A program made the translations under genes and the position numbers. Below are positions 6,314-30,051 of a stretch of DNA of 32,000 nucleotides, piece by piece. The notes beneath the pieces were generated by a model. That model had not been told where the DNA came from, searched no databases, and saw nothing but the letters and a program-made list of their open reading frames with translations. The DNA is from Pyrodictium delaneyi (GTDB taxonomy: Archaea > Thermoproteota > Thermoprotei_A > Sulfolobales > Pyrodictiaceae): positions 1,320,001 to 1,352,000 of the forward strand of contig NZ_CP013011.1 of assembly GCF_001412615.1 (NCBI RefSeq), in the 5' to 3' direction. How positions within the stretch are numbered: the first letter of the stretch is position 1; each line of letters opens with the position of its first letter.

Positions 6314-7846
6314 CTAGGCGGCCTCCTCCACTCCCTGTACCAATGATGCGATCCTATCTGCCAGTTCGTCATGAATTTGATCTAGCCGCCTAACCTTTCT
6401 CCTGCCTCTCGGAGCAAGTGCATCCCGGCAGAAGCGGACGAGAAGTGTCTCCCCATTTTCCCTCTTGGCCTCTATCAGGTTCCTCTCAAAGCCAGCGTGA
6501 GCTATATAGTTCCTAGTATTGGTGTCAGCGCGTCTACCCTTCTCGCCTAGCCACGTCCACTCGGGGCCTGCCCGTCTCAATGGAGTAGAAGGGCTAGTGA
6601 GTTCGCTTTTTACAAGCTCCTGCTGAGCTGGTGGCAAGTATTTCTCTGCAAGACCACGTATAGTGTCCACAGGTACCTCTAAGGCGCCATAATCGCTGAT
6701 CCGTATATTGCCGCGGTACTCGAGGTATGCTCTGCATGCATAGTCTAGGAGTGCAGCAGAAGCGAGAATAGCTTTGACGTCATCGTAATCAAACCCCACA
6801 AGTCTTAGTACACGCACCCAGCTGACACCAGTACGGATAATTACAGAGGACTCTAGGCTCCTCGACACTATGTCCACGAGTTTGTGAGTCACGTATGCTA
6901 GCCATGAGCTTCCCGGTGGCTGGGCGTTCTCATACCCGTACTGTAGCAGTGCCAGAGGGAGGCCATAGTGGAGTGTTGCTGAAGCCCTCTTACCCATAGT
7001 GTATACCTGGCGCCATGCCTTCTTAGCCTCTGCAATCCCTAGCTCCTTCGCCACATAGTTTGCAGTGTCGCTGCCGAGCCCTAGCCTCTCTAGAGTAGGC
7101 TTGTCGGTTATGCGTACAGGTGTAGGATCTCTCGCCCTCGCCATGGTGTATACGAGCCTCGTCGCAGCCTTGACGCTAGTGACAGCCTCGCGGTCTACTA
7201 GGTGTATCTCTAGAGTCTGGTCAGGCACGTATGGCTCGCTATTGAATACGTCAACGTTGATCCTTACACCGGCTGAAGCAGAGAGAATCCTCGCTGCAGC
7301 CATTACGGCCCGGAAAGCGGCTAGAGGCATGTAGTTTATACCATGCGTGATGTCCAAAGCTATCTCTACTTTCCCATTCACTTCTCCACGACTGTTGATC
7401 TCCGCTAGTTCTTCAAGCGTATAGGCTATGACGCAAGAAGCATAGTCAGAGACAGGGTTGCCGAGGAAGCTACGCCACTCACACCCAATAGAGGCTTCCT
7501 GCGGCTTAAAATGGCCGTGGGCTGGACAGACTGCGATACGCACAGCTCTGCCAGCAATATCGACGCCACTATTTTCCCGAACGTATTCTACTATGGCTGT
7601 CTTGAGTTCGTCTAATGCCTCTCCGTAGCTGTCTCTCTGAATGCTCTCTAGAAACTTGTTTATCATCTTGTTGCTGCATAGTGCACTCTCGGAGATGACT
7701 ATCAGGATGCGTCTCGGGTTTAGCGCCTTAGCTAGGCACGAGAGACTCGTGGTAGACTCCTCCTCGTAGCCCATAAACACGTACTTAGCTGGTCTCCAGC
7801 TCCACGGTAACCCCCACGGCGCTATAAGAAGGTCAGTTTCACGCAT
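6314..7846 (-). CDS. csx1: Csx1-family CRISPR ancillary protein (CARF domain + HEPN RNase)
   Basis: 510 aa. LDITHGINYMP is the DxTHG signature of Csx1-type CARF proteins. C-terminal TRNYIAHAGFE fits the HEPN R-x4-H motif (RNxxxH). A sampled 60-nt line has ~48% G+C, lower than neighbouring genes. Confidence 0.8.
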   Translation of the reverse strand: MRETDLLIAPWGLPWSWRPAKYVFMGYEEESTTSLSCLAKALNPRRILIVISESALCSNKMINKFLESIQRDSYGEALDELKTAIVEYVRENSGVDIAGRAVRIAVCPAHGHFKPQEASIGCEWRSFLGNPVSDYASCVIAYTLEELAEINSRGEVNGKVEIALDITHGINYMPLAAFRAVMAAARILSASAGVRINVDVFNSEPYVPDQTLEIHLVDREAVTSVKAATRLVYTMARARDPTPVRITDKPTLERLGLGSDTANYVAKELGIAEAKKAWRQVYTMGKRASATLHYGLPLALLQYGYENAQPPGSSWLAYVTHKLVDIVSRSLESSVIIRTGVSWVRVLRLVGFDYDDVKAILASAALLDYACRAYLEYRGNIRISDYGALEVPVDTIRGLAEKYLPPAQQELVKSELTSPSTPLRRAGPEWTWLGEKGRRADTNTRNYIAHAGFERNLIEAKRENGETLLVRFCRDALAPRGRRKVRRLDQIHDELADRIASLVQGVEEAA

Positions 7847-7889: not shown

Positions 7890-10193
7890 TTATGGCTTCG
7901 GGCTCCTTGCAAGCCTTTCGACTCTTACCAGGAGAGGTATACGGCGCTCGGGTACTGCGAGACCTGATACGAGGGCTTGGCCTGGCTCTAGGTCTGGAAG
8001 CCTCTCAACAGTCTCCTGGCTTACCGACCCGACACCCCTCTTTATCCCCGTCAAGTCGTCGGGGTTAGTTATACGGAGGGCTATCAGGGTAGCTGCTTGG
8101 CTGAGTATCCCGGGGTCTATGAAGCCGGGCCTCTGGCTGACCAGGATCAGGCTTAGCCCCCACTTTCGGCCTTCACGTGCCACCCGTAGCAGCAGGCTCT
8201 TGGAGGCTCGGTTCTCTCCGGCAGGAGCCAGGTTGTGGGCCTCCTCGACGACTATTAGGGTGCGGCGCTGGGGGCTATAGCTTGTAGTCGATACTGTGAA
8301 GGCTTCCGCTATGAGCCTGGCTACTGCGTGGTCGGTGTCTCCGCGGCTCGGGGGAGCTAGGTGTACTATGCTGAAGCCCTCGACAAGCCTCTGAGCGATG
8401 AGCCGGTAATGTGTAGCGTCTAGATGGGGTGACACGTGGCGGGCTACGCGGCGTAGGCCGCGGGCTAGGCTCTCTACTGTGCCCTTTGCATAACCTTCAA
8501 GGGAGCTTTTGACCCGGGAGAAGCTGGCACGGAGCGAGCCTACTAGCTCTCCGCTAGCCTTCTCGGGTAGCTTTTGCGGCTTCAAGCTGGCAAGTTTTTC
8601 GTCGTGCTCTAGTGCTGTGGCTATCACCTCCCAGGGGCTTATACTCGGGTCGCTTGACCCCCTACTAGGTGCTGGGAGGTAGCTTGCGATCTTGTAGAGA
8701 AAACCTGCTAGAGGGCTCTCATCTACCCCGGGCTGGCTAAGCCTCTCCTCAGCCTCTGATGCCAGGTTATAGGCTACGATCCCTGCTATGCTGCGGCAGT
8801 CCACAAAGGGGACACCCATGCTCTTGAGCTTCCTCCAGAGCGTAATGCACGCCTCCTTCTCGGCTTCGGCGGGGCTCTTACGGCCTACTAGTACACGTCT
8901 ATACTCATCTGCAGCATCTATTACGTGCTGTAATAGAATCCTGGGCTCAACTTTGTATCGTGTAAGCATATCCATTATGTCTGCTAGGCCCTTGACTTCG
9001 TTCACTACACCTACGTCGAGGAGCCCTAAAATATCGGCTACGGTTTCCAGGGCGTCTACGAATGCCGACGACGTTGTATGCGAGAGCTCGTAGACTTCCT
9101 CGACGCTGAGCCTCGAGGGAAGCGGAGTAGCAACCACGAGCATAGGCTCGTACTTGATGAGGCTAGCTGCAGTCTCCCTGGAGACGGATTTTATGCCACC
9201 ACTTGAATCGACCAAGTATATACTGTGGCGGCCATATACTAGCCCCCGCAAGTTCCTGCCAAAGCGCTTCTCCAGGTCTCCTAGGAGGCCCACAAGACTT
9301 GCTGCATACCTCTCGTCGCTCGCCCTCTTGAACCCAACCGATGAGAGATCGTAGGGAACTAGAATGGTCTTATTCGTGTTCCTAGCCCATGTTGCCGGCA
9401 AGCTGGTATACAGTTCGGGCTGCATCACGGCGTCGAGCAGGGGTACGATGTCCTCCCTGCGGTAGGGGTAGCCTGTATACTCCCCCGCTATATCGAAGAC
9501 TATGACCCCGCCGGAGTCGCTGAACTCGTCCTTCCTCCAGGCGTACTCCGCTACGATCCTCTTCACGGTCTCCGTCTTGCCGCTGCCTGTCTGCCCGAGC
9601 ACAGCCAGGTGCATTGTAAGCCTATCGGGGTCGAGATAGACGCGTATACCGGTATTGTATGCTAGCTTGCCGAGATAGATCCCCCTGCCGCCTTCGATAC
9701 CGCGGTGCAACAACGCCTCGATGGTGCTGGTGTCTGGCTCCTCTATGATGCTGCTTGGCCGCGGCGGCTGCTCGGGGAGGACTAGTACTGGACGGCCCTT
9801 CTCGTCTTGGGCTAGTTGGCCGAGGAGGCGCAGCTTTATCTCCCGTAGGCTGTGCCATGCGACTAGGCTGCTCGTGGGCGAGAATAAGGCCTCCAGTATG
9901 CGGCGGGCATCGGCTAGGCTCGAACCCCTCTCCTCGAGTATCCTTGCTATCTCTTCTAGCCTCTTGGTGTCGAGGGCTGGTATGAGGCTCTGCTCGGACA
10001 CGTCCACCACTAGTGCTAGGTAGTGGCGCTTGTTCTGCTCGTCGCGTACCAGCGCTAGGGCGCCGTAGCGGAGTAGCGTGGTAGCCGACTTGTAGACTAC
10101 GCCGCGTAGCTCGCTGTAGGACTCGACCGAGGCTATGAAGCCTACGAAGCCCTGGCTGCCTGGAGGGGGCGTGGAGCTAGGCGGCGTAGTCAA
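7890..10193 (-). CDS. HerA/FtsK-superfamily ATPase (HerA-like, enlarged)
   Basis: 767 aa with a TTG start. N-terminal HerA-barrel-like segment (GFVGFIASVESYSELRGVVYK...YLALVVDVSE). Walker A is VLGQTGSGKT (residues 198-207, nt ~9571-9600). Walker B is LIVVEEAHNL (residues ~646-655, nt ~8241-8262). Followed by RKWGLSLILVSQRPGFIDPGILSQAATLIALRITNPDD, typical of DUF87/HerA ATPases. Confidence 0.8.
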   Translation of the reverse strand: MTTPPSSTPPPGSQGFVGFIASVESYSELRGVVYKSATTLLRYGALALVRDEQNKRHYLALVVDVSEQSLIPALDTKRLEEIARILEERGSSLADARRILEALFSPTSSLVAWHSLREIKLRLLGQLAQDEKGRPVLVLPEQPPRPSSIIEEPDTSTIEALLHRGIEGGRGIYLGKLAYNTGIRVYLDPDRLTMHLAVLGQTGSGKTETVKRIVAEYAWRKDEFSDSGGVIVFDIAGEYTGYPYRREDIVPLLDAVMQPELYTSLPATWARNTNKTILVPYDLSSVGFKRASDERYAASLVGLLGDLEKRFGRNLRGLVYGRHSIYLVDSSGGIKSVSRETAASLIKYEPMLVVATPLPSRLSVEEVYELSHTTSSAFVDALETVADILGLLDVGVVNEVKGLADIMDMLTRYKVEPRILLQHVIDAADEYRRVLVGRKSPAEAEKEACITLWRKLKSMGVPFVDCRSIAGIVAYNLASEAEERLSQPGVDESPLAGFLYKIASYLPAPSRGSSDPSISPWEVIATALEHDEKLASLKPQKLPEKASGELVGSLRASFSRVKSSLEGYAKGTVESLARGLRRVARHVSPHLDATHYRLIAQRLVEGFSIVHLAPPSRGDTDHAVARLIAEAFTVSTTSYSPQRRTLIVVEEAHNLAPAGENRASKSLLLRVAREGRKWGLSLILVSQRPGFIDPGILSQAATLIALRITNPDDLTGIKRGVGSVSQETVERLPDLEPGQALVSGLAVPERRIPLLVRVERLARSPKP

Positions 10194-10337: not shown

Positions 10338-11939
10338 CTATGCTAGGAGGGTGCGGGTCTCCCAGCCCCTTATGAAGCTGAGGTATGGCTGACTCTTCTT
10401 GGACATGTTTTCGAGGAGTGTTTTGAGGATATGCGCCTCGTCTAGGCTAAGACGGCTATACTTGTCCACTACCAGGAGCTGCGGGGGATACCCGTAGACT
10501 GTTAGGGATGCCGAGAGGCCGGTGAAAGACAGCAGAGTGTCCCAGCCCTGCATGCCATCCACGTACTCAACCCTTAAAGCTGGCGGCACTACTAGGAGCC
10601 GCGCTGCCTCGCACGGCGAAAGGCCTGCCTCGCCTAGGCTCCCGCGTAGCTCGCTACAGCCCGGCGGGCGGCGGGGCATTATGTAGGCGTATCTTATCTT
10701 GCGTAGCTCGTCTAGGGTCCTATACGCCTCGTCGATGTGGCATCGGAGCCTCTGCTCGCCCCCACGCTCCTCGAGCACTATCTCTAGCCAGCCTGTGTCC
10801 CCGCGCCGGGGCCTCGGCCGCGTAGCAGCGTAGACCCCGCCGCCGGGGGCAGGGCTAAGGTAGTAGAAGCCGTAGACAAGGTCGCTATCACTATAGCTCG
10901 TGGGGAGTACCCCGCTACTCCGTATCGCGGCCTCTAGCTGCTCCCTGGAGGCCGTCTCTAACCCAGTACCGTAGCGGAGCTGGAGCTCCTGCTCAAGCTC
11001 TGTGAGCATCTGTTCCCACTCACGCCTAGAGTCCAGCGCATCGGCTACAGCGCCCGGGTCGTCGCAGAGACAGTCCGCCGCATAGTCTGGGCCTCCCAGA
11101 GCCTTCAACGCGTCAACAATCTTCCGTTTCAGCAGCTCGCTCATCCACCATATCTTGCTGGCTACATTCTCGCTAGCAGACCTTCTCGCTACGTCGTGGA
11201 CTATGTCGGCTACCACCGAGGCTGCTAGGATGCGGCTCCTCTCGACACTCTCTACAACGCCCCCTACGCCGCAGTCGCCGTGGGAGGCGTCCTCGGCTAG
11301 ACGGCGGAGCAGGGAGAGCACAGCAAGCCCGATGTTAGCCCGGCCGCTATCCCTGCAGAGCCTAGCATCACCGACAATGCTATTCACCGTCCCGGGACCT
11401 AGCCCGGCGTAGCCTAGGGCAGCCCGGAGCACCCGCTCCGGCACATCGTATGCCCTGGAGAGTAGATGGTGTACCTGCTGTAGGAGAGGGCCATGGCGTA
11501 CTACGATGGCGTGCTCTGCCCCTGGTAGGCCGTGGCTATCGAGGAGCCTCTGCCATCCCTCGCATAGTGTGAGCAGCATGGCGAGTTCGACTAGGTAGCT
11601 TATGCCCTGCCTAGCTCTATCACTCCCCGCCATGGTGAAGATTGAGGGCCCTAGCCTCCCGTCGTCGTGCACGGGTGCTGGGTGGAGAACACGCTCCTCA
11701 ACTCTGCCTCCGCTGCTAGCCCTAGCGAGTACAGCTAGCTTGACCGCGAAGGCTTCTCCGCCCGGCTGCCTGACAGTCCTCGAGCCGGCGTCCACGTAGA
11801 AGAACGCCGTATCGGCGTCGAGGAGCCTCTCGGGGCCGGGCAGGCTCTCCCCTGGGAGCCAGAAGCCGCCGCTGCCGTAGCGGGCTAGGGCGGCGAAGAG
11901 TAGCTGGTAGGGCTCCAGCGTCAACGTATCCCTGCCCAC
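10338..11939 (-). CDS. NurA-like nuclease (putative partner of the HerA-like ATPase)
   Basis: 533 aa with a GTG start. N-terminal FFYVDAGSRTV resembles the NurA catalytic (V/I)DGS motif. C-terminal VYGYPPQLLVVDKYSRL resembles the NurA GYP...(A)D motif. Position immediately upstream of a HerA-like gene fits the HerA-NurA pairing. The call rests on short motifs only. Confidence 0.55.
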   Translation of the reverse strand: MGRDTLTLEPYQLLFAALARYGSGGFWLPGESLPGPERLLDADTAFFYVDAGSRTVRQPGGEAFAVKLAVLARASSGGRVEERVLHPAPVHDDGRLGPSIFTMAGSDRARQGISYLVELAMLLTLCEGWQRLLDSHGLPGAEHAIVVRHGPLLQQVHHLLSRAYDVPERVLRAALGYAGLGPGTVNSIVGDARLCRDSGRANIGLAVLSLLRRLAEDASHGDCGVGGVVESVERSRILAASVVADIVHDVARRSASENVASKIWWMSELLKRKIVDALKALGGPDYAADCLCDDPGAVADALDSRREWEQMLTELEQELQLRYGTGLETASREQLEAAIRSSGVLPTSYSDSDLVYGFYYLSPAPGGGVYAATRPRPRRGDTGWLEIVLEERGGEQRLRCHIDEAYRTLDELRKIRYAYIMPRRPPGCSELRGSLGEAGLSPCEAARLLVVPPALRVEYVDGMQGWDTLLSFTGLSASLTVYGYPPQLLVVDKYSRLSLDEAHILKTLLENMSKKSQPYLSFIRGWETRTLLA

Positions 11940-12005: not shown

Positions 12006-12980
12006 TTGCCTGAGCCTCTATACAGCAGCTGCGAGGCCCACCTAGCCACAGTCGGGACAAGCCTGCTAGCCAACACGCTCCGCCTAGTACGCCAGGCCCT
12101 GGCCTCCGGCTCCACCCAGGCAAGGCTGGCCACGCCCCTGGGCAGCGTCACGGTGGACTTCAGCCAGCTCGGCGGCCCCGGGGCCCTCAGGGAGGTGGAG
12201 GAGTGTCTTGCCAGCTGCGCCGACCCAGCCCGTATCGACGAGGAGAAGTGTAGGCGCTGCATGTCGGGCGACACGCCGGCCAGGAGAGCGGTCGAGCTAG
12301 TCCTATACGCTGAGCCGTACACGGCCTCGGCGGAGCTTAACGCGGCCCGGTGGAGGCTTGGGAGCCCCCCGCGCTGCCCCGGCGGCGTGTTCTTCGTCCT
12401 CTACGCCTCCGACACCATTGCCGGGCAGCTAGCCGCGGAGATCCTAAGAGGCTACCTGGAGGACATCGGCTGCCGGGCCCGGGTAGAGGTCGTCAAGGGC
12501 CTCGGCCAGGAGCTGTGGGAAGGCATCGCTGAGCTAGCCCGGAGGATAATCTGCCACACAGACTGCCTAGCAGCCCGGGGTTGCCGGGTCTACGTAAACC
12601 CGACTGGCGGCTTCAAGCCCGAGTCAGCGGCGGCGGTGCTGGCAGCGGGCCTCGCCGGGGCGACAGCAGCCTACTACGTCCACGAGGCCATGAGGGAGCC
12701 CGTGTTCATACCGTTCCCACCGCTGGTAGTAGATGCGCGGCAGGCCTCCAGGCTCCTCCACGGAGCTGCGGCGCTCGAGACACGGAGCAGCGTCTGCCAG
12801 GGCGAGGTAGACGACCAGCTACTCGCGCTAGCAGTGCAGGCGGGCGCCGCCAGGCCCATGCCCAGGCAGCCCGGCTGCTACATGGTGGACGAGGAGAGGG
12901 CCCGGGAGCTCACGAGGCTACTCCGCGTAGTCCTCGGCGCCGGTGGCTGCGAGCCAGGCTGCCCAGTCCCCGGGCAGTAG
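12006..12980 (+). CDS. CARF-domain protein (Csm6/APE2256-like CARF) with short uncharacterised C-terminal tail
   Basis: 324 aa with a TTG start (the first start after the in-frame stop at 11970). HLATVGTSLLAN at the N-terminus, ASAELNA, and VYVNPTGGFKPES are hallmark CARF (APE2256/Csm6-type) motifs. The ~85-aa tail has no clear effector motif. Confidence 0.7.
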   Translation: MPEPLYSSCEAHLATVGTSLLANTLRLVRQALASGSTQARLATPLGSVTVDFSQLGGPGALREVEECLASCADPARIDEEKCRRCMSGDTPARRAVELVLYAEPYTASAELNAARWRLGSPPRCPGGVFFVLYASDTIAGQLAAEILRGYLEDIGCRARVEVVKGLGQELWEGIAELARRIICHTDCLAARGCRVYVNPTGGFKPESAAAVLAAGLAGATAAYYVHEAMREPVFIPFPPLVVDARQASRLLHGAAALETRSSVCQGEVDDQLLALAVQAGAARPMPRQPGCYMVDEERARELTRLLRVVLGAGGCEPGCPVPGQ

Positions 12981-13004: not shown

Positions 13005-14711
13005 GTGGGCTGGGAGCAGCCCGCCGGGGCCCTCACCGGGGCGCTCCGGGGCTGCAGCCGGGTATACCTCGCCAACGCTGGCACAAGCCCCGAGGCCGTC
13101 GCCTCCGCGCTAGCCAGGCTAGCGGAGACCGGGCTACTCGACGAGACATGCATCATCCTGCTCACAACCCCGCAGAGCGCCACGGTGGCTAGGAAGGCCT
13201 CGGAGATCCTCAGCAAGGCAATGGACTTCGACTCTCTCAGGGCGCGCATAATTGTGGACGCCGACGCCGGGGAGGGGAGCGTCTACACCGGGATATTCGA
13301 CGACCCGTCCACAGCCATCGAGTCGCTACGCAGGTTGATGGCGGCTATACTGAGGGAGGCTAGGGAGGGGGATATACGGCTCATAGGTGCGGACATAACC
13401 GGCGGCACGAAGCTCATGGCGGGTGCGCTCGCGACGCTAACAGTCGCTGCAGCCATGTCCACGGGGGAGAAGAGGGCCGAAGACCAGGCGGGTAGAAGCG
13501 TCTACATATCGTATGCGCCGGGCGAGGCCTTCAGCCGCCCCGGGCTCCGGCAGAACGCCCCGGCGGGGTGGTGGGGAGGCAGAAGCTACCCCCACATACC
13601 GAGGCCCCTGCAGAAGCTAATACTGGTCGATGCAGCCCTTGTAGCCGGGAAGCCAGCCAGCGGGGGCGTTGTCCGCTACGCGTGCATGCCTGGGCTACTG
13701 AGGCTCCCGGAGCGCCTAGGCCTAGTACTCGACCCGGACGCGGGGCTTAGCCCCCTCCTAGACGCGGTCGCGTGGTCCACCCGGGTCGTCAACGCCGCTA
13801 CCTGTGGAGAGGCAGCCATAACCCTCGCCATATCGGGTAGGCGGTGGAGAATAGCCACCATAGACTGGCAGAAGCCAGCCCTAGAGCTGGATACCCCCAG
13901 GCTGCTGTGGGACGAGGGCTGGGTCAATATAGCTCACAGCTACGCTGATGCTCTCGGCGTCAATGACGACAGGCAGGTGGAGCAGCTCCCCAAGTGCTTC
14001 TCGAGGCTAGCCAGGTTCGCGGTAGCCCGCCTCGCGGTACGGGACGCCAGCGGGGACTATAGCGGTCTAAGGGGGAGGCCATTCTCGGAGGCGGTGATCC
14101 GCGCCGCCCAGGATGGCAGAGGCATCGTCCTGGACACTAATGCGCTGTACAACGGTGCTCATAACAGCCTCCTAGAAGCCGAGACCATAGCCGCTCTTAG
14201 GCCGGTGCAGCCACAGCCCCGCAGCAACCCGCTACACGTGCCGTCATGCGCGCTCCGAGAGCTACGCAACAGGCTGATGGAGGAGGCTAAGCAGAAGCCA
14301 GGCCTGGCAAGCCCATGCTTCGCTTCAACACTACTAGCCCACCAGGCGGCTAGCGGGCTCCCCGTAGTGGAGACGCCCGGCGAGCAGCGCTGCGACTACA
14401 CAGTCTACGAGATGGCCAGGAAGGAGCAGTACATAGTAGCCACGTCAGACACTGGAATAGCAAACCTGGCAAAAGCCACCGGCGCACCGCTACTACACCT
14501 CCACCCGAGTAGCCCAGCGCACCCAGACCAGGAGAAGCCCTGGACACAGCACCAGGCAGCAGCCGCAGCAGCCCAGCTCATAGCATACCTCGCCATGATC
14601 ATTCCCTGCAGCAAGGGCAGCGTGCTGGTAGAAGGCGACGCCAGAACAGTAGCCCTATGCCGCCAAGACGGCTACATAGCCGCAAAGGAGGAGAACAAGC
14701 ACAGCAAATAG
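13005..14711 (+). CDS. CARF-PIN fusion protein
   Basis: 568 aa with a GTG start. N-terminal CARF-like motifs VYLANAGTSPEAV (residues ~20-32) and IGADITGGTKLMAG (~127-140). C-terminal PIN-like motifs GIVLDTNALYNG (D377), ALRELRN, and YIVATSDTGIANLAKATGAPLL (D482). About 200 unassigned residues lie between the two domains, and a ~65-aa tail follows. Confidence 0.7.
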   Translation: MGWEQPAGALTGALRGCSRVYLANAGTSPEAVASALARLAETGLLDETCIILLTTPQSATVARKASEILSKAMDFDSLRARIIVDADAGEGSVYTGIFDDPSTAIESLRRLMAAILREAREGDIRLIGADITGGTKLMAGALATLTVAAAMSTGEKRAEDQAGRSVYISYAPGEAFSRPGLRQNAPAGWWGGRSYPHIPRPLQKLILVDAALVAGKPASGGVVRYACMPGLLRLPERLGLVLDPDAGLSPLLDAVAWSTRVVNAATCGEAAITLAISGRRWRIATIDWQKPALELDTPRLLWDEGWVNIAHSYADALGVNDDRQVEQLPKCFSRLARFAVARLAVRDASGDYSGLRGRPFSEAVIRAAQDGRGIVLDTNALYNGAHNSLLEAETIAALRPVQPQPRSNPLHVPSCALRELRNRLMEEAKQKPGLASPCFASTLLAHQAASGLPVVETPGEQRCDYTVYEMARKEQYIVATSDTGIANLAKATGAPLLHLHPSSPAHPDQEKPWTQHQAAAAAAQLIAYLAMIIPCSKGSVLVEGDARTVALCRQDGYIAAKEENKHSK

Positions 14712-14737: not shown

Positions 14738-15214
14738 ATGCCCCGGCTAGTAGCGCTCATCGGCGCTAGCCCTGGGGTGCTACACACCACCCTCTGCCTC
14801 CTACGCCGGAAAGGCATACAGGTGGACGAGGTAGTAGTGGTTGCCACACGCCACGAATGGGGCACCGAGGCGATAGAGATCGCCAGGAGCTGCCCCTGCC
14901 CCGGAGAAGAAGCACCACCAGCACCACCAGCTACACGCCTCCTACTACTCCCCTCCACCGACATAACAGGCCCCCAGGACATCACCCAGCTGAGAAAAAC
15001 ACTATCCAGGCTCCTCGGCCCAGACACGATACTAGACGTCACAGGCGGCCGGAAACTCATGAGCATAGCAGCAGCCCTCGAAGCCCTAAGAAAAGGCGCA
15101 ACCATCACAGCCTCGATAATACCCATACACGAGTACGACCGGATACGCAGAGCAACCAAGCCCTGCGACAAAACAATCCAAAACCCCAGCACAGCACACC
15201 TAACAAGACTCTAA
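14738..15214 (+). CDS. Stand-alone mini-CARF protein (NE0113/Csx14-like)
   Basis: 158 aa from ATG 14738. The track start at 14657 overlaps the previous gene and adds an implausible Arg-rich extension. MPRLVALIGASPGVLHTTLCLL and ILDVTGGRKLMSIAAALEAL match the two CARF signature elements of small NE0113-type proteins. The coding strand is strongly A+C-rich. Confidence 0.6.
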   Translation: MPRLVALIGASPGVLHTTLCLLRRKGIQVDEVVVVATRHEWGTEAIEIARSCPCPGEEAPPAPPATRLLLLPSTDITGPQDITQLRKTLSRLLGPDTILDVTGGRKLMSIAAALEALRKGATITASIIPIHEYDRIRRATKPCDKTIQNPSTAHLTRL

Positions 15215-15286
15215 GAACAACTCTAAGAACACAAAAAGACACCTAGAACCACCCTCCACCGCACACAACGGCCACAAATTACACTC

Positions 15287-15797
15287 CATTCAGTTCTATT
15301 TGCCATGATTCAGAGCGTGAACAGCGGCCTCGACCGCTACGTCGGCTAGCAGGACTTTCAGTTCTATTTGTTATGATTCCTAGTAACTGAAGTCGGGTAC
15401 GAGGAGGCACAAATGATACGTGTCTTTCAGTTCTATTTGTTATGATTCATGGTGATGTTGAGGAAGCTAAGGCACTCCTAGAAGCCATAGTCTTTCAGTT
15501 CTATTTGTTATGATTCCTTCGGGAGTTGGCGCTCCTCACGCCCGAGGAGCCCCTCATTCACCTTTCAGTTCTATTTGTTATGATTCAGAATATGTAAGTA
15601 CACCATTTGTCAGGACTACAGAGTCATCTTTCAGTTCTATTTGTTATGATTCTTGAAGGCAGCTAGTGATTGGTGGCTATCCAACGTATTAACGAAAACG
15701 TTGACTTTCAGTTCTATTTGTTATGATTCCACCGGCGGCTAAGAGGGAGCAGCCCAAGGAAGAGGCTAAAGCCTTTCAGTTCTATTTGTTATGATTC
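15287..15797 (-). CRISPR. CRISPR array 1 (8 repeats, 7 spacers), transcribed on the minus strand
   Basis: The 25-nt repeat CTTTCAGTTCTATTTGTTATGATTC on the plus strand starts at 15287*, 15355, 15424, 15492, 15562, 15628, 15705 and 15773 (* = 3 mismatches). Spacers are 43, 44, 43, 45, 41, 52 and 43 nt. The degenerate copy lies at the left end and the conserved leader at the right, so the functional orientation is GAATCATAACAAATAGAACTGAAAG (GAAAG 3' end, predicted 8-nt handle ACUGAAAG). Confidence 0.95.
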
Positions 15798-15834
15798 TGC
15801 ATTTTCTCTGTCTAGTGTAGTTGTTGTGGTGCAT

Positions 15835-16163: not shown

Positions 16164-16784
16164 TTAGGTGTTTGTTTTGTGGTAGAGTGTTAGCCATGGT
16201 GTTGGTAGGATTAGGTTTGCTCGCTGGGTTAGGAGTTGTAGTCGTTGGAGTGTCCGGGTGTGTCTTCGGATTGTCCGCTCTGAGAGGTTGAGGCTTGCTG
16301 CTAGCTGGGGTATTGTTGCCGGGCCGTTGGCGTGTATGTGGTTGGCTATTCTGCGCTGGATTCCGGGTAGGCTGTTTGTCAGTATCGTGTGGACTGTGTG
16401 GAGTGGTATGGTTGTCTCTGTTGTCCGGATTGTTGCTGTTTTTTCTGTCCGTGCTGTGTGGATGAGGAGGGCTAGGGCTATGGCTAGGGTTGTTTCTGGC
16501 GTGGTGTGCTCGATGATCGCGGTTGCCGTGGTCTTGGTGTCTAGTGTGTCGAGTATCTGTGCTATGGCTGTTGCTGGCTCGTGGGGGTTTATGGCTACTA
16601 GTCTTGGCTGGGGGTGGCCTGCTAGCTCTGCCAGGGTGGCTACCTGCTGTAGCGTTGCCTGCATCGGGATGGTTACGGGCTGTTCTGCTACTAGGACTAT
16701 CTCGGCTCCTCCGGTGGCTGTTAGTAGTGCTTTGAGGGCGGGTGTGGGCGTGGGCGTTAGTGGCGCTATGACGGTGTGGCGCGT
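16164..16784 (-). CDS. csa3: Csa3-family regulator (CARF + winged HTH), start codon anomalous
   Basis: The track ORF is 16164-16664 (166 aa), with a C-terminal wHTH (IANHIHANGPATIPQLAASLNLSERTIRRHTRTLQRLQLL). The frame stays open upstream to the TAG at 16800-16802. Those 45 codons (..TRHTVIAPLTPTPTPALKALLTATGGAEIVLVAEQPVTIP) look like the first beta-alpha-beta of Csa3 CARF domains. No ATG/GTG/TTG occurs there. An ACG at 16784-16782 lies 7 nt after a GGAGGGG Shine-Dalgarno-like run. Confidence 0.65.
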   Translation of the reverse strand, partial: TRHTVIAPLTPTPTPALKALLTATGGAEIVLVAEQPVTIPMQATLQQVATLAELAGHPQPRLVAINPHEPATAIAQILDTLDTKTTATAIIEHTTPETTLAIALALLIHTARTEKTATIRTTETTIPLHTVHTILTNSLPGIQRRIANHIHANGPATIPQLAASLNLSERTIRRHTRTLQRLQLLTQRANLILPTPWLTLYHKTNT

Positions 16785-17009
16785 AAGCCTTCCCCTCCTC
16801 TACGTGTATCCTAGTGCTGTATGTATTGTGTTTTACGCTTCTGCGGTCCATCTATCCTTGTTGGCTACGTGCTCGTCGCCTATGGTCCCTGTTGCCTGCT
16901 CCGGGCTTTGCGGGGTGCCTATGGGTGTTGGGTCCCGTGCCGCCGGGGCAGGGTGGTGCTAGATAAGTCACGGTATTACCTTATATCGGGTGGGTTCTGG
17001 GCTGCCTTG

Positions 17010-17903
17010 ATGCTCTCGCCCAGCAGTGTCGGGAGGCTGCTCCGGCGGCTCCACGCGCTGAGGAGCCGCGACCCTGTCCCCGAGGAGCTGAGGGGCTGGA
17101 GCTGGTGGAGCCCGCCGCTGCGGCCCCGGGCCCACTTAGGCCTAGGCGTGAGCGAGGCGGCGATACGCTGGTGCCCTAGCCGCCGCGACCTCTACCTCCG
17201 CCGGGTCCGCGGCCTAGAGCCGCCGCCTAGCAACGGCATGCTCCGCGGGAGAGTCGTGCACGAGGCATTCCGCCGCAGCGCCGTGGACGTGGCTAGGCTC
17301 CACGTGCTAGGCCGAGAGCCCCCAGGCATCGTGGCGGAGCTCGTCGCGGATGCCGAGGAGGCTGCGAGGGGCATAGCTGAGGAAGCAGGCGCCCCGGGGC
17401 TCGAGGACCTAGCAGCCAGGGCCTACACCCGCTTCGTGTTCCTCTGGAGCGGCTGGGTCGAGGAGACAGGGCAGCCCCCATGGTACACCGAGTACGCTAT
17501 CGACGGCTCGCTACTGGGGCTCTCCCCGAGGCTCCGGGTCAACGCGCTCGGGGTAGGCATAGTGGTCGAGGTCAAGCTCGGGGGCTGGAGAGACGACTAC
17601 CCCGCCGCGCTGGCGGGCTACGCGCTCGCCCTAGAGGCTAGCCACGAGATCCCCGTAGACTATGGCCTCGTGCTCCTCGTCTCCGGCGACGCCTCCAGGG
17701 TCGAGGCACACCCCGTCTACCTCGGCGCCGACGAGAGGATAGCCTTCATCGAGGCCAGGGACGAGGCGATAGAGATGTTCCTCAGCGGCCAGGACCCTGG
17801 CACGCCCTCTGAGTGCAGCCGGGGCTGCCCCTTCGCCCGCCTCTGTAGCCCCACAGCGCCGGCGCGAGGCGGCAGCGAGGCAGCAGGGGAGGCGGTGGCT
17901 TGA
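17010..17903 (+). CDS. csa1: Csa1-type Cas4-family nuclease (PD-(D/E)xK with Cys cluster)
   Basis: 297 aa from ATG 17010. TTATAT at ~16980-16986 lies ~25 nt upstream, a leaderless spacing. The track start at 16821 adds 63 Cys/Gly/Val-rich codons from the G+T-rich strand. Motifs: IRWCPSRRDLYL (N-terminal Cys), GIVVEVKLG (D/E-x-K), and C-terminal CSRGCPFARLC. Confidence 0.75.
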   Translation: MLSPSSVGRLLRRLHALRSRDPVPEELRGWSWWSPPLRPRAHLGLGVSEAAIRWCPSRRDLYLRRVRGLEPPPSNGMLRGRVVHEAFRRSAVDVARLHVLGREPPGIVAELVADAEEAARGIAEEAGAPGLEDLAARAYTRFVFLWSGWVEETGQPPWYTEYAIDGSLLGLSPRLRVNALGVGIVVEVKLGGWRDDYPAALAGYALALEASHEIPVDYGLVLLVSGDASRVEAHPVYLGADERIAFIEARDEAIEMFLSGQDPGTPSECSRGCPFARLCSPTAPARGGSEAAGEAVA

Positions 17904-18889
17904 CCCGCGTCCTCGTAGTGGCGGCGCACGGCGCCAGGATACGGGTCCACCGCCGCAGCCTCGTGGTGGAGAGCAACGGGGAGCGGATGGTAGCGCCCCT
18001 CCACGAGGTAGACCGCGTAGTCGTGGCCACGAGCGGGGTCTCGGTGACGAGCAGCGCTATCCGGCTACTAGCCAGGAGCGGGGTGGGCATAGTCTTCCTC
18101 GACGCCCACGGGGAACCCATAGTCTCGCTGGAGCCTCCCTGGATAAACGCGGCAGCAGAGACACGGCTCGCCCAGTACCGGGCTAGCGTGGAGCGGCCCC
18201 TCAACCTCGCCAGGGCCATGGTCGCGGCTAAGCTGGAGAACCAAGCTGGGTTCCTCCGCAGCCTAGCCCGGCGGACCAGCGCAGCCTGGCTACGCGAGGA
18301 GGCGGCCGCGGTCGAGGAGCGGATGCTCCGCGTCTACTCGGCGGGCTCGGCCGAGGAGATACGGGGCCTCGAGGCCCAGGCCGCCCGCCGCTACTGGGGC
18401 TCCCTAGCCAGGCTTCTCCCCCAGAGCCTGGGCTTCCAGGGCCGCGACCACGGGAGCCGGGACCCGGTGAACACTGTCCTCAACTACCTCTACGGCGTGC
18501 TCTACGCCGAGGTCTTCCAGGCCCTCGTGGTCCACGGGCTAGACCCCTACGTCGGGTTCCTCCACGCCCTGCGGCCTGGGAGCCCCGCACTGGTATATGA
18601 CTACGCCGAGATGTTCCGCGTCAGCGCCGTCGACAGCCTAGTCTACACGATGCTCGCGAGCCGGGACGCCCCGGGCATCAGGGTAGACCCTGAGACCGGG
18701 CTGCTAGCCCGCGAGACCCGGGCAGAGCTAGTGAAGCGCATGTACGAGTGGCTGCGCCGCCGCGCCGTGGATTCGAGGGGCCAAGCCGAGCCCCTGGAGA
18801 GGCACATCAGGCTCTATGCCCGCCGGCTAGCCCAGAGCCTCCGCGCCGGTACAGACTACCAGGGCTTCGTAGAGGCCTGGAGGCCGTGA
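17900..18889 (+). CDS. cas1: Cas1 integrase
   Basis: 329 aa with a TTG start overlapping the csa1 stop. NTVLNYLYGVLYAEVFQALVVHGLDPYVGFLHA...PALVYDYAEMFR is the conserved Cas1 C-terminal catalytic region. Confidence 0.9.
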   Translation: MTRVLVVAAHGARIRVHRRSLVVESNGERMVAPLHEVDRVVVATSGVSVTSSAIRLLARSGVGIVFLDAHGEPIVSLEPPWINAAAETRLAQYRASVERPLNLARAMVAAKLENQAGFLRSLARRTSAAWLREEAAAVEERMLRVYSAGSAEEIRGLEAQAARRYWGSLARLLPQSLGFQGRDHGSRDPVNTVLNYLYGVLYAEVFQALVVHGLDPYVGFLHALRPGSPALVYDYAEMFRVSAVDSLVYTMLASRDAPGIRVDPETGLLARETRAELVKRMYEWLRRRAVDSRGQAEPLERHIRLYARRLAQSLRAGTDYQGFVEAWRP

Positions 18890-19179
18890 TCATACTAGTA
18901 GCCTACGATATAAGCGACACGGGCCGCCGCGACCGGGCAGCCAAGCTGCTACAGAGCATGGGGCTGTCGCGTCTCCAGCGGAGCCTCTACGCGGGCCGAG
19001 GCGGCGCAGCCAAGGCCAGGGACATAGCCCGGGCTCTCGAGCGCATCCTGGACCCCGAGACCGACGTAGCAGATATCCTCGTCCTCCCAGACCACGTGTG
19101 GAGCCGCCGCATAGAGGTCGGCAATGGCAGAGCAAGGGTGCCAGGGCGTGCACATCCACCCGGAGTACACCTCGCCTAG
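18886..19179 (+). CDS. cas2: Cas2
   Basis: 97 aa from GTG 18886, with a GTGA overlap on the cas1 stop. VIILVAYDISDTGRRDRAAKLLQSMGLSRLQRSLYAG is the classic Cas2 N-terminus. The track start at 18748 lies inside cas1. Confidence 0.85.
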   Translation: MIILVAYDISDTGRRDRAAKLLQSMGLSRLQRSLYAGRGGAAKARDIARALERILDPETDVADILVLPDHVWSRRIEVGNGRARVPGRAHPPGVHLA

Positions 19180-19735
19180 ACTAGTCACCGCCACTCTCGT
19201 AAAGCTCCACGAGTGGTGCCCACTCCTCGCATGGCTAGCCGCTAACACCCTCCCCCGCATAGCCCCGACACCCTCCATGAGGGAGGGGAGGCGCAGCCAC
19301 ACCAGGGAGGAGCTAAGACGCGTAGCAGAGGAACTAGGCCTAAGACGGCCAGCAGTACAGGTAGCCCTAGCAAGCACACAATACGGCGCCACCGGCACCA
19401 TAGACATAATCGACAAGGAGACAGGGACGATAATAGAGGTCAAAGCAACGGCCAGGAGGAAGCCACACCGCAGCCACCTAGCCCAGCTAGCAGTCTACAC
19501 CCTCCTAGCAGCCGAGAACAACCTCAAACCAAGACGAGCAGCAATAGCGACACCAGAGCCCAGGATAATAGCAGAGCTCCCCGCCGACACCTACACCCTA
19601 CAATGGGCCAGAAACCTCATACAGAGAACCAGGAGGACAATAGAAAGCCCAATCCCACCCCTAGTAACACAGCCCAGAGAGAAATGCCGCTACTGCACAC
19701 ACCGCCACACCTGCCCATACCCAAACCTAGACTAA
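19124..19735 (+). CDS. cas4: Cas4 (RecB-like nuclease with 4-Cys cluster)
   Basis: 203 aa. Motifs: HEWCPLLAW (first Cys), GTIDIIDKETGTIIEVK (D...EVK), HLAQLAVY (QxxxY), CRYCTHRHTC (CxxCx5C). Start uncertain: ATG 19124 overlaps cas2 by 56 nt, and the alternative is GTG ~19148. The 3' two-thirds is strongly A+C-rich. Confidence 0.85.
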   Translation: MAEQGCQGVHIHPEYTSPRLVTATLVKLHEWCPLLAWLAANTLPRIAPTPSMREGRRSHTREELRRVAEELGLRRPAVQVALASTQYGATGTIDIIDKETGTIIEVKATARRKPHRSHLAQLAVYTLLAAENNLKPRRAAIATPEPRIIAELPADTYTLQWARNLIQRTRRTIESPIPPLVTQPREKCRYCTHRHTCPYPNLD

Positions 19736-20091: not shown

Positions 20092-20665
20092 GAATCATAA
20101 CAAATAGAACTGAAAGACCGCTCCCCGCCCCCTACGCAGATTTCTCGATTAGCTCGCCCACGCGAATCATAACAAATAGAACTGAAAGACTTCACCGCTG
20201 TCTCTCACTTCAACCTCTGACAGTAGATGGAATCATAACAAATAGAACTGAAAGCTCCACGTAGAGCTTCTTTACTAAGAACGACTTCCCGGCCCGTCTG
20301 AATCATAACAAATAGAACTGAAAGACCTTAACGACGCGAAAACCATGCCTGAACACCTTATCGGATACGAATCATAACAAATAGAACTGAAAGTATCTCC
20401 CTTCCTTGATGTACTCTAACATTTTTTCGCTAATGGTGAATCATAACAAATAGAACTGAAAGCTGTCAAACTTCAGTGCCTCTGGTCTAGCAAAAAACGC
20501 TAGCCTGAATCATAACAAATAGAACTGAAAGTACTCGCCGTCCAAGTCCTTGATGAACGCCACTGAGTCCAGGTGAATCATAACAAATAGAACTGAAAGA
20601 TTAGGTAGCCCGGAGCCGGGAGAAACCAATGGCTGCTGTAGAATCATAACAAATAGAACTGGAAG
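20092..20665 (+). CRISPR. CRISPR array 2 (9 repeats, 8 spacers), transcribed on the plus strand
   Basis: GAATCATAACAAATAGAACTGAAAG starts at 20092, 20164, 20230, 20300, 20369, 20438, 20507, 20575 and 20641* (* the terminal copy ends GGAAG, 1 mismatch). Spacers are 47, 41, 45, 44, 44, 44, 43 and 41 nt. Confidence 0.95.
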
Positions 20666-23256: not shown

Positions 23257-23334
23257 ACACCCGGGCATAGAGGGCCAGTACCTAAGACGTTTACACGGAG
23301 AGCCCCCAGAGGGTGCCCCCTCGTCTTGGGCGGC

Positions 23335-23982
23335 ATGCTTCTCGCTGCGAGCCTGGGGTTCGACGAGCGGCCAGTTACCCACGCCATGGCCGATACGCGG
23401 CCCCGCTGTGTAGCCCTCTTCGCGCCCCGTGTAGGCGGGGAGACACGGCGGCTCGATGACGCCCTGCTGCTCGTGAGGAGGTTCGCCGAGGCCCTCGGAG
23501 CGAGGCTGGAGGTCTACTGGCTCGACGTGGGCCGCGCGGGGCTCGAGGAGCTAGTCTACATGGTCAAGGAGCACGTCCGCAGACTCGTCAGAGAGTGCAG
23601 CGTCGACCGGGTGGTGTTCGCCCCGAGGGCCGGGCTACGGGTACTCACGGTAGTCCTAACAGTGGCCGCTATGGGGCTCGCCCTCGAGCCCGGCCAGAGA
23701 GTCACACTGCTCCTACGAGAGGAGAGCATCGGCGCCGTCTACGAGACCGACGCGGCGTCGCTAGCCCCGGTGGAGCTAGGCGAGGAGGAGAGGAGAGTAC
23801 TCAGACTCCTAGCCAAGCATACCCTGGAAGGCCGCGGCCTCGGCGTACGGGAGGCAGCCGAGCTACTCGGCATACCACGGTCCACCGTGCACCGGCGGCT
23901 CCAGGCACTAGCCGAGAAGGGGCTCGCCTACAGGGCCGAGGACGGCTACAGGGCGACACCCCGCGGCATAGCCTCAGCATAG
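23335..23982 (+). CDS. Csa3-like regulator (CARF + winged HTH), second copy
   Basis: 215 aa from ATG 23335. MLLAASLGFDERPVTHAM resembles the Csa3 N-terminal strand-helix (xVTxGF(N/D)E). C-terminal EEERRVLRLLAKHTLEGRGLGVREAAELLGIPRSTVHRRLQALAEKGLAY is a wHTH. Convergent with the cmr operon. Confidence 0.7.
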   Translation: MLLAASLGFDERPVTHAMADTRPRCVALFAPRVGGETRRLDDALLLVRRFAEALGARLEVYWLDVGRAGLEELVYMVKEHVRRLVRECSVDRVVFAPRAGLRVLTVVLTVAAMGLALEPGQRVTLLLREESIGAVYETDAASLAPVELGEEERRVLRLLAKHTLEGRGLGVREAAELLGIPRSTVHRRLQALAEKGLAYRAEDGYRATPRGIASA

Positions 23983-24276: not shown

Positions 24277-25338
24277 CTAGGCGACTACCACGGTGCCCCA
24301 TCCGAGCCTCGTATAGGCTCCTAGACCTCTACGGGCGGCCTCCTTTGCAGCTCTGCAGGGGTCTTCCCGGGTAGTCGCTACCACGATTGTGCCAGCTGGT
24401 ACGAGTAGGAGAGGCGGGCGATGCACCTCCCGTGCCATACTCCAGCCAGGCATCACGGCTTCTACTGGCTCGCGTGTCAGCTGCACTATGTAGGGCTCTC
24501 TGGGCTCGAGGATGCTCTCGAGCCCCGCGGCGCTGACTAGGCTCTCGGCTAGCCTCTTCGCGGCGCTCTTTGTCAGCTCTATGACGCCGGCCCAGGGGCT
24601 CTCGTCTAGTAATGCTGGCGAGACTAGTAGCAGGAGAAGCGTGTTGTTGCCGCTGCATGCAGAGAGGAGGCCCACTGGCTCGGTGTCGGAGCTACGTAGG
24701 ACTAGCTGGGCTGGACGCTGCTCTCCCCCAAGCGTGGTCATAAATCTTTTCTCACCCTCCTCTATGGGGCTCTTGGAGGCCTCCACTAGGGCTACGAACT
24801 CCACAAGCTCTGTGCCCTGAAGGGGGTCCAGCATCCCTATAGTATAGAGCATCCCGGGGGCAGCTGTCTTACTAGAACGGTTTAGGGCTATACCGGTGCG
24901 CCTCAACACCCTAGCCTGGAGAGACGAGCCGGCCTTCAGACCCTCCATGAGCCCCTCGAAGAGGAGCCGGGGTCTACCGCTGAGCGGTGCGACGCTGGCT
25001 AGTAGCTTCTTCACAGTATCTAGGGGAGCGTAGCCCCTGCTGGTGTAGACGTAGAGCTTGCCGCTGTGCCTAGCTAGCCCGGTGTACAGGTGGTATTTCT
25101 CCCCGAAGAGCGATTCCAGGCAGGCCTCAGTGTCACCGTAGACCCCGGGTCTCTGTGCCCTGCTGCAGGCTCCCGCCTCGTAGGCTAGAGAGGCTAGTGC
25201 TCCCGCTATGGTTGAGGGCATGGGGTATGCTAGGGTCTCGCTGGCTGCGCCGGGGCCGTGGACACGGGCTTCGAACACGCCTGGACGCCGGAACGACATA
25301 GGCCAAGCCGACCTGAACGCGGCCTCCAACACGGGCAC
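24277..25338 (-). CDS. cmr3: Cmr3 (Cas5-family RAMP of type III-B)
   Basis: 353 aa with a GTG start. Motifs: YPMPSTIAGALASLAY, TGIALNRSSKTAAPGMLYT, TTLGGEQRPAQL and C-terminal RLGWGTVVVA match Cmr3 hallmarks. Sits immediately downstream of cas10. Confidence 0.8.
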   Translation of the reverse strand: MPVLEAAFRSAWPMSFRRPGVFEARVHGPGAASETLAYPMPSTIAGALASLAYEAGACSRAQRPGVYGDTEACLESLFGEKYHLYTGLARHSGKLYVYTSRGYAPLDTVKKLLASVAPLSGRPRLLFEGLMEGLKAGSSLQARVLRRTGIALNRSSKTAAPGMLYTIGMLDPLQGTELVEFVALVEASKSPIEEGEKRFMTTLGGEQRPAQLVLRSSDTEPVGLLSACSGNNTLLLLLVSPALLDESPWAGVIELTKSAAKRLAESLVSAAGLESILEPREPYIVQLTREPVEAVMPGWSMAREVHRPPLLLVPAGTIVVATTREDPCRAAKEAARRGLGAYTRLGWGTVVVA

Positions 25339-25352
25339 GCCGCGGCCACCCC

Positions 25353-29084: not shown

Positions 29085-29102
29085 ATGCGGGGCGACAGAG
29101 AA

Positions 29103-30029
29103 TTATGCCTTGGGTTTGGGCTTAGCTATGCGGGCTGAGACAAGCTGGAAAACACCATAGCCCTTAGTCGTCCTAGCACCGATACCGCCCTTCGCAAGAG
29201 CAGAGGACACGAGAGCAGCAACACTAACCTCTACAGAGTCGTTGTTAACGTGCAGCCCTAGAGCCCCAAGCGCCTCTGCTATCTCGTTCCTCCTATCAAG
29301 AGGAAGAGCTGTTATGAATCTGAAGACTACGCCCGGTGCCAGCACGACATGCGGTACAGGGACTGGCTGTGCCTCGTACTCGTAGCGAACCGGCTCACCC
29401 CCACGGTGATAATGAGGCGTAATGACGGCTGGCTCCACGAGGCGGCCACGGCGACCAGGCTCTACCGGGTATGCATCAAGGAAGAGCAGAGAACCCATAG
29501 AGCCGTCGGAGTCGCTACTATCGCCAAAGAGTGCTCTTAGAGCATCAAGCCTCTCAGCATGCTCCTTCTCGGCAACACATTTATCCTCCGATCCTCTACG
29601 CCTTGCACGGAGCCTATCACAGCCGGCAGACACCTCTGCAAACGCGGAGACTGCGCCCTTGAAGCTAGACCCGGGCACATACGGCAAGTCCAGCAAGAGA
29701 TCCCAGGCAAGTCCCACCTCGAACACAGAGGCTAGAAGCCCACCCCCAGCACCCACTAGGCCACGATCAGTAAGCTTGGCATCAATCACTACGACCGCGT
29801 GGCCAGTCTCCAGTAATCCCTTTACTTGTTCGTCTAGTAGATTCCGTACTAGCGCTATCCTGGCACTCGACGTCCCTACGATTAACGATGTGAGGCTTTC
29901 GCTAATCTGTCGGAGCACTTCAGGTTTTTCATCCTTTAGACTGAGGAGGCCTTTTTTCTTGACCGTACCGAGTACAGCTTCTGTATAATCATTAATTGTA
30001 CGTAGGAGGATACTACCAAACTTCTTCAC
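29103..30029 (-). CDS. cmr6: Cmr6-like RAMP with N-terminal extension
   Basis: 308 aa. LPYVPGSSFKGAV, LFGDSS...GSLLFLDAYP, VITPHYH and the G-rich loop GGIGARTTKGYGVF fit Cmr6. The first ~90 residues form an extra helical-looking segment. Confidence 0.7.
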   Translation of the reverse strand: MKKFGSILLRTINDYTEAVLGTVKKKGLLSLKDEKPEVLRQISESLTSLIVGTSSARIALVRNLLDEQVKGLLETGHAVVVIDAKLTDRGLVGAGGGLLASVFEVGLAWDLLLDLPYVPGSSFKGAVSAFAEVSAGCDRLRARRRGSEDKCVAEKEHAERLDALRALFGDSSDSDGSMGSLLFLDAYPVEPGRRGRLVEPAVITPHYHRGGEPVRYEYEAQPVPVPHVVLAPGVVFRFITALPLDRRNEIAEALGALGLHVNNDSVEVSVAALVSSALAKGGIGARTTKGYGVFQLVSARIAKPKPKA

Positions 30030-30051
30030 CGTGAACTCACCTCTTAGTGTC

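Follow-up and report, generated by a model that had tools for sequence, protein, structure and literature searches.

The window analysed here is the whole 32,000-nucleotide stretch of DNA presented above. It comes from Pyrodictium delaneyi, a member of the order Desulfurococcales and the family Pyrodictiaceae, and this 32-kb window is a CRISPR-Cas super-locus. We focus on one of its genes, Pyrde_1344, which is annotated as hypothetical. The listed open reading frame (ORF) at 13005-14711 on the plus strand begins with a GTG start codon and encodes a protein of 568 amino acids (aa), to which Pyrde_1344 is a 100% match. An earlier reading of the bare letters (hereafter the original prediction) had proposed a CARF sensor fused to a PIN nuclease and gated by cyclic oligoadenylate (cOA). 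The call of the two domains is borne out by profile searches, a confident AlphaFold2 model and the type III CRISPR context. At this level of profile and model evidence, Pyrde_1344 is confirmed as a fusion of CARF and PIN domains.

The Pyrde_1344 gene and its predicted domains

Two metagenomic relatives with 81-83% identity retain the full-length ORF and the gene order of the target, and the gene is therefore real. Its parts are as follows, with the supporting evidence in brackets.

13005-14711, plus strand: the whole CARF-PIN gene Pyrde_1344 (ORF list, 100% protein match, syntenic homologs at 81-83%)
13053-13514, plus strand: CARF domain, aa 17-170, with a Rossmann-like beta-alpha-beta arrangement (AlphaFold2 secondary structure, Foldseek, SSO2081 profile match, PADLOC CARF5)
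13074-13097, plus strand: CARF motif I, NAGTSPEA, with G26-T27-S28 (conservation, HMMER alignment to SSO2081)
13392-13412, plus strand: CARF motif II, DITGGTK, D130 to K136 (conservation, alignment to the SSO2081 motif DITGGRK)
13515-14114, plus strand: family-specific middle region, aa 171-370 (predicted local distance difference test, pLDDT, of 70-96; covered by CARF_m3 profile positions 116 onward)
14115-14513, plus strand: PIN domain, aa 371-503 (Foldseek, 1o4w profile match, Pfam PIN in 6/14 members, conserved acids)
14514-14708, plus strand: C-terminal tail, aa 504-568 (AlphaFold2 pLDDT >90)

The motifs quoted in the original prediction, its residue numbers, the middle region of about 200 aa and the tail of about 65 aa all lie where it had placed them. 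On the CARF side, RVYLANAGTSPEAV occupies aa 19-32 and includes VYLANAGTSPE at aa 20-30, while LIGADITGGTKLMAG and IGADITGGTKLMAG correspond to aa 126-140 and aa 127-140, respectively. On the PIN side, D377 is carried by IVLDTNAL (VLDTNAL; nucleotides (nt) 14133-14135), E419 by ALRELRN (nt 14259-14261) and D482 by ATSDTG (nt 14448-14450). These three acids had been listed correctly, but a fourth, D464, which is preceded by the invariant C463, had been overlooked.

The family is rare. When 1.84 billion cluster representatives were searched exhaustively with HMMER, only 15 clusters were found at E<=1e-3, most of the matches being full-length. The named members are all Pyrodictiaceae, and Pyrfu_0473 of Pyrolobus fumarii belongs to one of the 15 clusters. 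Conservation was read from an alignment of 14 members, in which the distant clades are 20-32% identical to Pyrde_1344. The CARF motif residues G26, T27, D130, T132, G134 and K136 are invariant in 14/14 members, and S28 is serine or asparagine, with asparagine in most. The PIN acids D377, E419 and D482 are invariant as well, and the fourth position is aspartate in 12/14 members and glutamate in 2/14. Full conservation extends to W189, W190, Y195, P196, P199 and R200 of the linker, to N263 in the middle region, and to C415, K429, C463, G484, A520, Q524 and L529. At 20-32% identity between clades, such invariance indicates that the motifs are more than chance.

Searches with the single sequence gave no significant match. 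The best Pfam hits were sub-threshold (Fcf1, E=0.2; DUF5615, E=0.14), as was the CARF model TIGR02710 in NCBIfam (E=0.028), and a sequence search of the Protein Data Bank (PDB) returned nothing. The two domains are thus visible only at the level of profiles or structures. When the family profile was compared with PDB chains, the PIN protein AF0591 (1o4w, E=7e-5) and the SSO2081 ring nuclease (E=4e-4) were recovered, followed by weaker matches to the PIN domain of TTHA0540 (E=0.009) and to HARP (E=0.03). Pfam recognizes PIN in 6/14 members and CARF_Card1 in 5/14. In addition, PADLOC CARF5 matches the CARF domain of Pyrde_1344 (E=1e-5).

Structural modelling depended on the depth of the alignment. 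AlphaFold2 run on three near-identical sequences reached a pLDDT of 33, and the 14-sequence alignment was used instead, giving a pLDDT of 86.9 and a predicted template modelling score (pTM) of 0.90. With the family alignment as query, a word-indexed search for homologs recovered the same three proteins only. Against the PDB, Foldseek matched the N-terminal part of the model to CARF proteins, with Tt Csm6 on top, together with Cam1, Sis0455, Sso2081 and Card1, which like Tt Csm6 bind cyclic tetraadenylate (cA4), and with Cad1; the probability was 0.98-1.00 for the CARF domains of Csm6, Cam1, Sis0455 and Sso2081. The C-terminal region had been predicted to be a PIN fold, and in the model aa 371-503 match PIN domains: 3ix7 (TMt 0.62), 1o4w (TMt 0.69), PAE0151 and HARP. 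A further Foldseek match is 5f4h, a PIN-domain ATPase/Holliday-junction helicase. The viral fold search in BFVD with the same model gave no significant match.

In the model, the strands and helices of the CARF Rossmann-like core span aa 19-170. The middle region consists of a conserved coil with the motif GWWxGxxYPxxPR (aa 188-200, nt 13566-13604) and then an alpha/beta module. The original prediction had proposed structure prediction as a way to confirm both folds and to assign this linker. The folds of both domains were matched, but the middle region corresponds to no identifiable fold; PDB profile searches and Foldseek assign no known fold to it or to the tail (aa 504-568), although both are confidently modelled. 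The PIN domain is predicted as an alpha/beta/alpha sandwich with strands at 374-376, 410-413, ~454, 477-480 and 496-502 and helices between them. All four acids occupy canonical PIN positions in this register: D377 ends beta1, E419 lies within the helix that follows beta2, D464 opens the helix that follows beta3 and D482 comes just behind beta4. The tail comprises a long helix (512-532) with an AAAAAQL motif and then a three-stranded sheet (538-562); A520, Q524 and L529 of the tail are invariant.

An invariant pair of cysteines (14/14) lies beside these acids. C415 (nt 14247-14249) precedes E419 by one helical turn and C463 (nt 14391-14393) stands directly before D464. These residues could form a disulfide or coordinate a metal in the active site of the PIN domain.

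The type III neighbourhood and the context of homologs

The other features of the window are listed below, with the database matches where they define the call.

6314-7846, minus strand: Csx1 (CARF+HEPN) effector (Pfam Csx1_CARF 8.8e-33, Csx1_HEPN 6.3e-7; TIGR01897 1.4e-38)
7890-10193, minus strand: HerA-like ATPase
10338-11939, minus strand: 533-aa protein beside HerA (no significant Pfam, NCBIfam, PADLOC or PDB-sequence match)
12006-12980, plus strand: stand-alone CARF7/APE2256-family protein, candidate ring nuclease (Pfam Cas_APE2256 1.3e-28, PADLOC CARF7 4.5e-138)
14738-15214, plus strand: Crn1-like/CARF_m13 stand-alone CARF protein (PADLOC CARF_m13 3e-47; NCBIfam cas_Crn1 8.4e-24, below cut-off)
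15286-15800: CRISPR array
16164-16799, minus strand: weak Csa3-like gene
16821-19735, plus strand: csa1, cas1, cas2 and cas4
20093-20665: second CRISPR array, inverted
23326-23982, plus strand: second weak Csa3-like gene
24277-31917, minus strand: Cmr module with Cmr3, Cas10/Cmr2, Cmr6 and a large RAMP protein
25353-29084, minus strand: Cas10/Cmr2 of the type III-B module (Pfam Cmr2_N and palm2; Cmr3 and Cmr6 adjacent)

Pyrde_1344 is tightly framed by two CARF genes, the CARF7 neighbour 24 nt upstream and the Crn1-like neighbour 26 nt downstream. The NCBIfam ring-nuclease model matches the CARF7 protein at 4.9e-21, below the cut-off of the model. For the Crn1-like gene, the listed ORF, which begins at 14657, would overlap the last part of the target; the probable true start is M28 (ATG at 14738), because a 158-aa ortholog in another locus (L006) sets it there. 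The Cmr module lies about 10 kb from Pyrde_1344. In translation, its Cas10 carries both the GGDD motif (YAGGDDLVAI) and the N-terminal HD motif, which makes cOA synthesis in the locus plausible. This Cas10/Cmr2 is likely to be the source of the cOA signal.

The window is an unusually dense hub of cOA signalling. Up to six CARF-type proteins can be counted in it: Csx1, CARF7, the CARF-PIN protein, the Crn1-like/CARF_m13 protein and two weak Csa3-like proteins of the CARF plus helix-turn-helix type. The matches of the latter to TIGR01884 (E=2.5e-5 and 2e-7) fall below the cut-off of the model.

Several further features of the window were observed. The two CRISPR arrays, with 8 and 9 repeats, share a repeat of about 25 nt, CTTTCAGTTCTATTTGTTATGATTC, and flank the csa1-cas1-cas2-cas4 adaptation module in inverted orientation. 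Between positions 16000 and 17000 the strand skew is extreme (GC skew +0.31, AT skew -0.52) and coincides with the minus-strand Csa3-like gene; the product encoded at 16164-16799 is very rich in threonine, and the other frames show spurious long low-complexity ORFs. At the end of the Cmr module, the large RAMP-domain protein (621 aa, 30052-31917, minus strand) has a weak Pfam RAMPs match and no NCBIfam assignment.

Outside P. delaneyi, the homolog P0008, which is 30% identical to Pyrde_1344, sits between two Cmr modules. The family is thus linked to type III systems in two lineages. The gene Pyrfu_0473 is found among toxin-antitoxin pairs, with Cas6 about 8 kb away and a HerA gene paired with that of a 545-aa protein about 7 kb away. 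This 545-aa HerA partner (locus L014, 1-2566) is homologous to the 533-aa protein of the window (33% identity, E=8e-44), which could be NurA-like. Other members, with no cas genes visible, lie among housekeeping genes or on short contigs, and for several of these seemingly unlinked homologs the contig is only 2-5 kb long.

At three loci (L004 400-1060; L014 9255-9915; L008 121-525), a VapBC-type pair or a PIN gene is followed directly downstream by a distant homolog. The VapBC-type pair at such loci combines a MazE-like antitoxin with a PIN protein. We considered whether the target is itself the VapC toxin of a VapBC pair and rejected this candidate: VapC is a single-domain protein of about 130-150 aa encoded with an antitoxin gene, whereas Pyrde_1344 has 568 aa, several domains and CARF neighbours. 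An hhalign comparison with bona fide VapC aligned only 32 columns (E=0.033).

Proposed function and competing explanations

We propose that Pyrde_1344 is probably an archaeal ancillary effector of type III systems, in which a PIN ribonuclease (RNase) is gated by cOA, most plausibly cA4. The N-terminal CARF domain would form a homodimer, as it does in all solved CARF proteins, and would sense the cOA produced by the nearby Cmr complex. cA4 would be the most likely ligand, since the closest CARF structures mostly bind cA4 and the neighbours are of the Crn1 and Csx1 types. Binding would be relayed allosterically through the conserved GWW..YP..PR linker and the middle module. The relay would activate the PIN domain, a canonical metal-dependent endonuclease with four acids, whose most likely action is non-specific RNA cleavage. 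Pyrde_1344 would thereby complement Csx1 as a second effector, and the signal would be cleared by the stand-alone CARF proteins on either side, which resemble ring nucleases. The CARF domain of Pyrde_1344 itself, in which the G-T-S and G-x-K motifs are retained, may also contribute to this clearance. By its motifs, a self-limiting ring-nuclease activity is possible in the target clade. It is not predicted for the whole family, because Thr135 replaces R105 of Sso2081 in Pyrde_1344 and most members have asparagine in place of S28.

Some findings weigh against this proposal. The residue R105, the main cA4-binding residue of Sso2081, is precisely the one that is replaced by Thr135. ST0035, the only CARF-PIN protein reported to have been tested, showed a weak crosslink to cA4 and no induced RNase activity (PMC6546367). 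Several family members are encoded without adjacent cas genes: P0005 and P0015 are surrounded by housekeeping genes and P0004 adjoins TGT. Furthermore, P0007, P0012 and Pyrfu_0473 adjoin VapBC-type genes. The gating by cOA and the nuclease activity of Pyrde_1344 are putative, as are the roles of the middle domain and of the tail.

In the strongest competing explanation, the CARF-PIN protein has no part in the cOA signalling of type III systems. Its CARF domain would then respond to a different ligand, such as some other nucleotide or, as in RtcR, the end or a fragment of an RNA, or it would provide dimerization only. The protein would serve housekeeping or toxin-like RNA processing, and its position in the island would reflect accidental clustering. 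Most distant homologs with a readable context have no adjacent cas genes, and the best PIN matches are AF0591-, TTHA0540- and Fcf1-like rather than defence toxins. This explanation also fits the failure of cA4 to activate ST0035 (PMC6546367) and the description of Crf6 CARF+PIN proteins as typically not associated with CRISPR (PMC12669027). Against it, type III or cOA-signalling gene sets surround members from two separate lineages of the family, and two ring-nuclease-like CARF genes flank the target at 24 and 26 nt. No variation is seen in the phosphate-binding CARF motifs that serve cOA recognition. The apparent lack of linkage is also weakened by contigs that measure only 2-5 kb, and it is common for CARF genes to work in trans to cas loci. 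On balance we judge this explanation unlikely.

A variant that retains cOA sensing would make the Pyrodictiaceae branch a mechanistically distinct CARF-PIN effector beyond Crf10/11. The GWW..YP..PR motif, the middle and tail module and the cysteine pair could then superimpose another level of control on cOA sensing, such as a redox or metal switch or a means of substrate selection. We regard this as quite improbable. Pyrde_1344 might also cooperate with the co-localized HerA ATPase and its 533-aa partner.

The substrate is a separate matter, as PIN-like domains include DNA flap nucleases. A cOA-gated PIN domain could therefore cut DNA or a structured nucleic acid, perhaps together with HerA and the conserved 533-aa protein. 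Consistent with such a target are the Foldseek match to 5f4h and the pair of HerA and its partner, which is found close to the CARF-PIN gene in Pyrodictium as well as in Pyrolobus. In contrast, P0008 has no HerA within 10 kb, most prokaryotic four-acid PIN domains are RNases, and the current classification predicts an RNase (PMC12669027). DNA or a structured nucleic acid as the substrate appears decidedly improbable.

The last explanation would make Pyrde_1344 mainly a ring nuclease or a cOA sponge, whose CARF domain degrades or sequesters cA4 while the PIN domain is accessory or inactive. Although G-T-S of motif I and the lysine of motif II match the catalytic motifs of Crn1/Sso2081, S28 is asparagine in most members and R105 of Sso2081 is not conserved. 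Moreover, the conservation of the four PIN acids (three invariant, D464 as D or E) speaks for a nuclease that is active, the target already has two dedicated ring-nuclease-like genes beside it, and Crf10/11 are flagged as sensor/effector and not as ring nuclease (PMC12669027). This leaves the ring-nuclease or sponge role very improbable. A pure ring nuclease was rejected: the target clade does carry G-T-S, but the Crn1-type motif II is incomplete (G-T-K, not G-R-K) and S28 is not conserved.

In the current CRISPR classification, PIN is listed among the effector domains activated by cOA, and the one reported test, that of ST0035, was negative. Pyrde_1344 offers a well-defined candidate to decide whether proteins of the CARF-PIN kind truly act as type III effectors. 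Its island holds a cyclase-competent Cas10, Csx1 and two ring-nuclease-like genes, and a confident model exists. It is an experimental target from a cultured hyperthermophile and represents a divergent branch that existing models barely detect. Should its activation by cOA prove true, Pyrde_1344 would become the first PIN effector in type III signalling with biochemical validation.

Relation to known CARF and PIN systems

The original prediction held that CARF-PIN architectures were essentially known from computation only, and this stands: in the literature searched, no demonstration of ligand-activated PIN activity was found. Its further claim, that the protein would add a new effector class, was overstated. 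The combination of CARF and PIN already appears in Shah et al. 2018, in PADLOC and in the 2025 classification. Shah et al. listed CARF+PIN as cluster 104 (Msed_1167) and called ST0035 of S. tokodaii 'a CARF-PIN toxin' (PMC6546367). In the 2025 CRISPR classification (Makarova et al.), CARF+PIN proteins are Crf6, Crf10 and Crf11, and the archaeal families are classed as sensor/effector with a predicted RNase (PMC12669027 Suppl. Table 2). PADLOC holds '--CARF_PIN' models for CARF_m1, CARF_m3 and CARF_m12, with names patterned on the CARF clade classification; these three groups now go under Crf6, Crf10 and Crf11. The legacy CARF_m3 corresponds to Crf10/Crf11, is archaea-specific and is represented by the PADLOC models PDLC01983 and PDLC01984. 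The Pyrde_1344 family comprises rare, divergent members of this catalogued, predicted and biochemically unproven class.

Among stand-alone PIN domains, AF0591 (1o4w) and TTHA0540 (3ix7) give the best PIN matches, with the DTN, D-x-x-L and T-x-D motifs in register. These small proteins, of the single-domain or PIN-TRAM type, lack a CARF sensor, whereas the Pyrde_1344 family adds the invariant C415 and C463 beside the catalytic residues.

The CARF fold is shared with Crn1/Sso2081. The ring-nuclease motifs of Sso2081 are G9-T10-S11 and G104-R105-K106, and R105 dominates cA4 binding (PMC10018336). The corresponding residues in Pyrde_1344 are G26-T27-S28 and G134-T135-K136. It differs by Thr135 in place of R105 and by a 400-aa C-terminal extension that contains the PIN domain.

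Csx1 and Csm6 (CARF+HEPN) resemble the target in pairing an N-terminal CARF sensor with a C-terminal RNase, and the expected logic, from cA4 to non-specific RNA cleavage, would be the same. In contrast to the metal-independent HEPN domain of these effectors, the PIN domain of Pyrde_1344 is predicted to be metal-dependent, and its middle region is unlike the helical or 6H domains of Csm6/Csx1.

Like Pyrde_1344, ST0035 and Msed_1167 are CARF-PIN accessory proteins of Crenarchaea with a link to type III cassettes. In the exhaustive search, neither showed detectable similarity to the profile of the target clade at E<=1e-3. The PADLOC 'CARF_PIN' model PDLC01068 matches only the CARF part of Pyrde_1344 (E=0.01).

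The closest catalogued counterparts are Crf10 and Crf11. They share with the target the archaeal origin, the collinear order of CARF, middle region, PIN and tail, and the predicted function as an RNase effector. The linkage to type III systems is common to both as well, given the Cmr and cOA-pathway genes of the window and the position of P0008 between Cmr modules. The CARF_m3--CARF_PIN model PDLC01984 matches Pyrde_1344 at E=1e-9 (36 bits), covering the middle and PIN regions only (residues 188-491 on profile positions 116-365). The homolog P0011 is matched end-to-end (E=2.5e-16, residues 5-503 on positions 5-421 of 433). The CARF_m3 scores are weak, the best in the family being 58 bits. Four of the eight members scanned individually (P0004, P0015, P0016 and P0017) gave no CARF_m3 match at E<=1e-5, and Pyrde_1344 is about 130 aa longer than the model. 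Judged by these profile alignments, the Pyrde_1344 family is best described as a collinear but remote sister branch of Crf10/11, and not as a core member.

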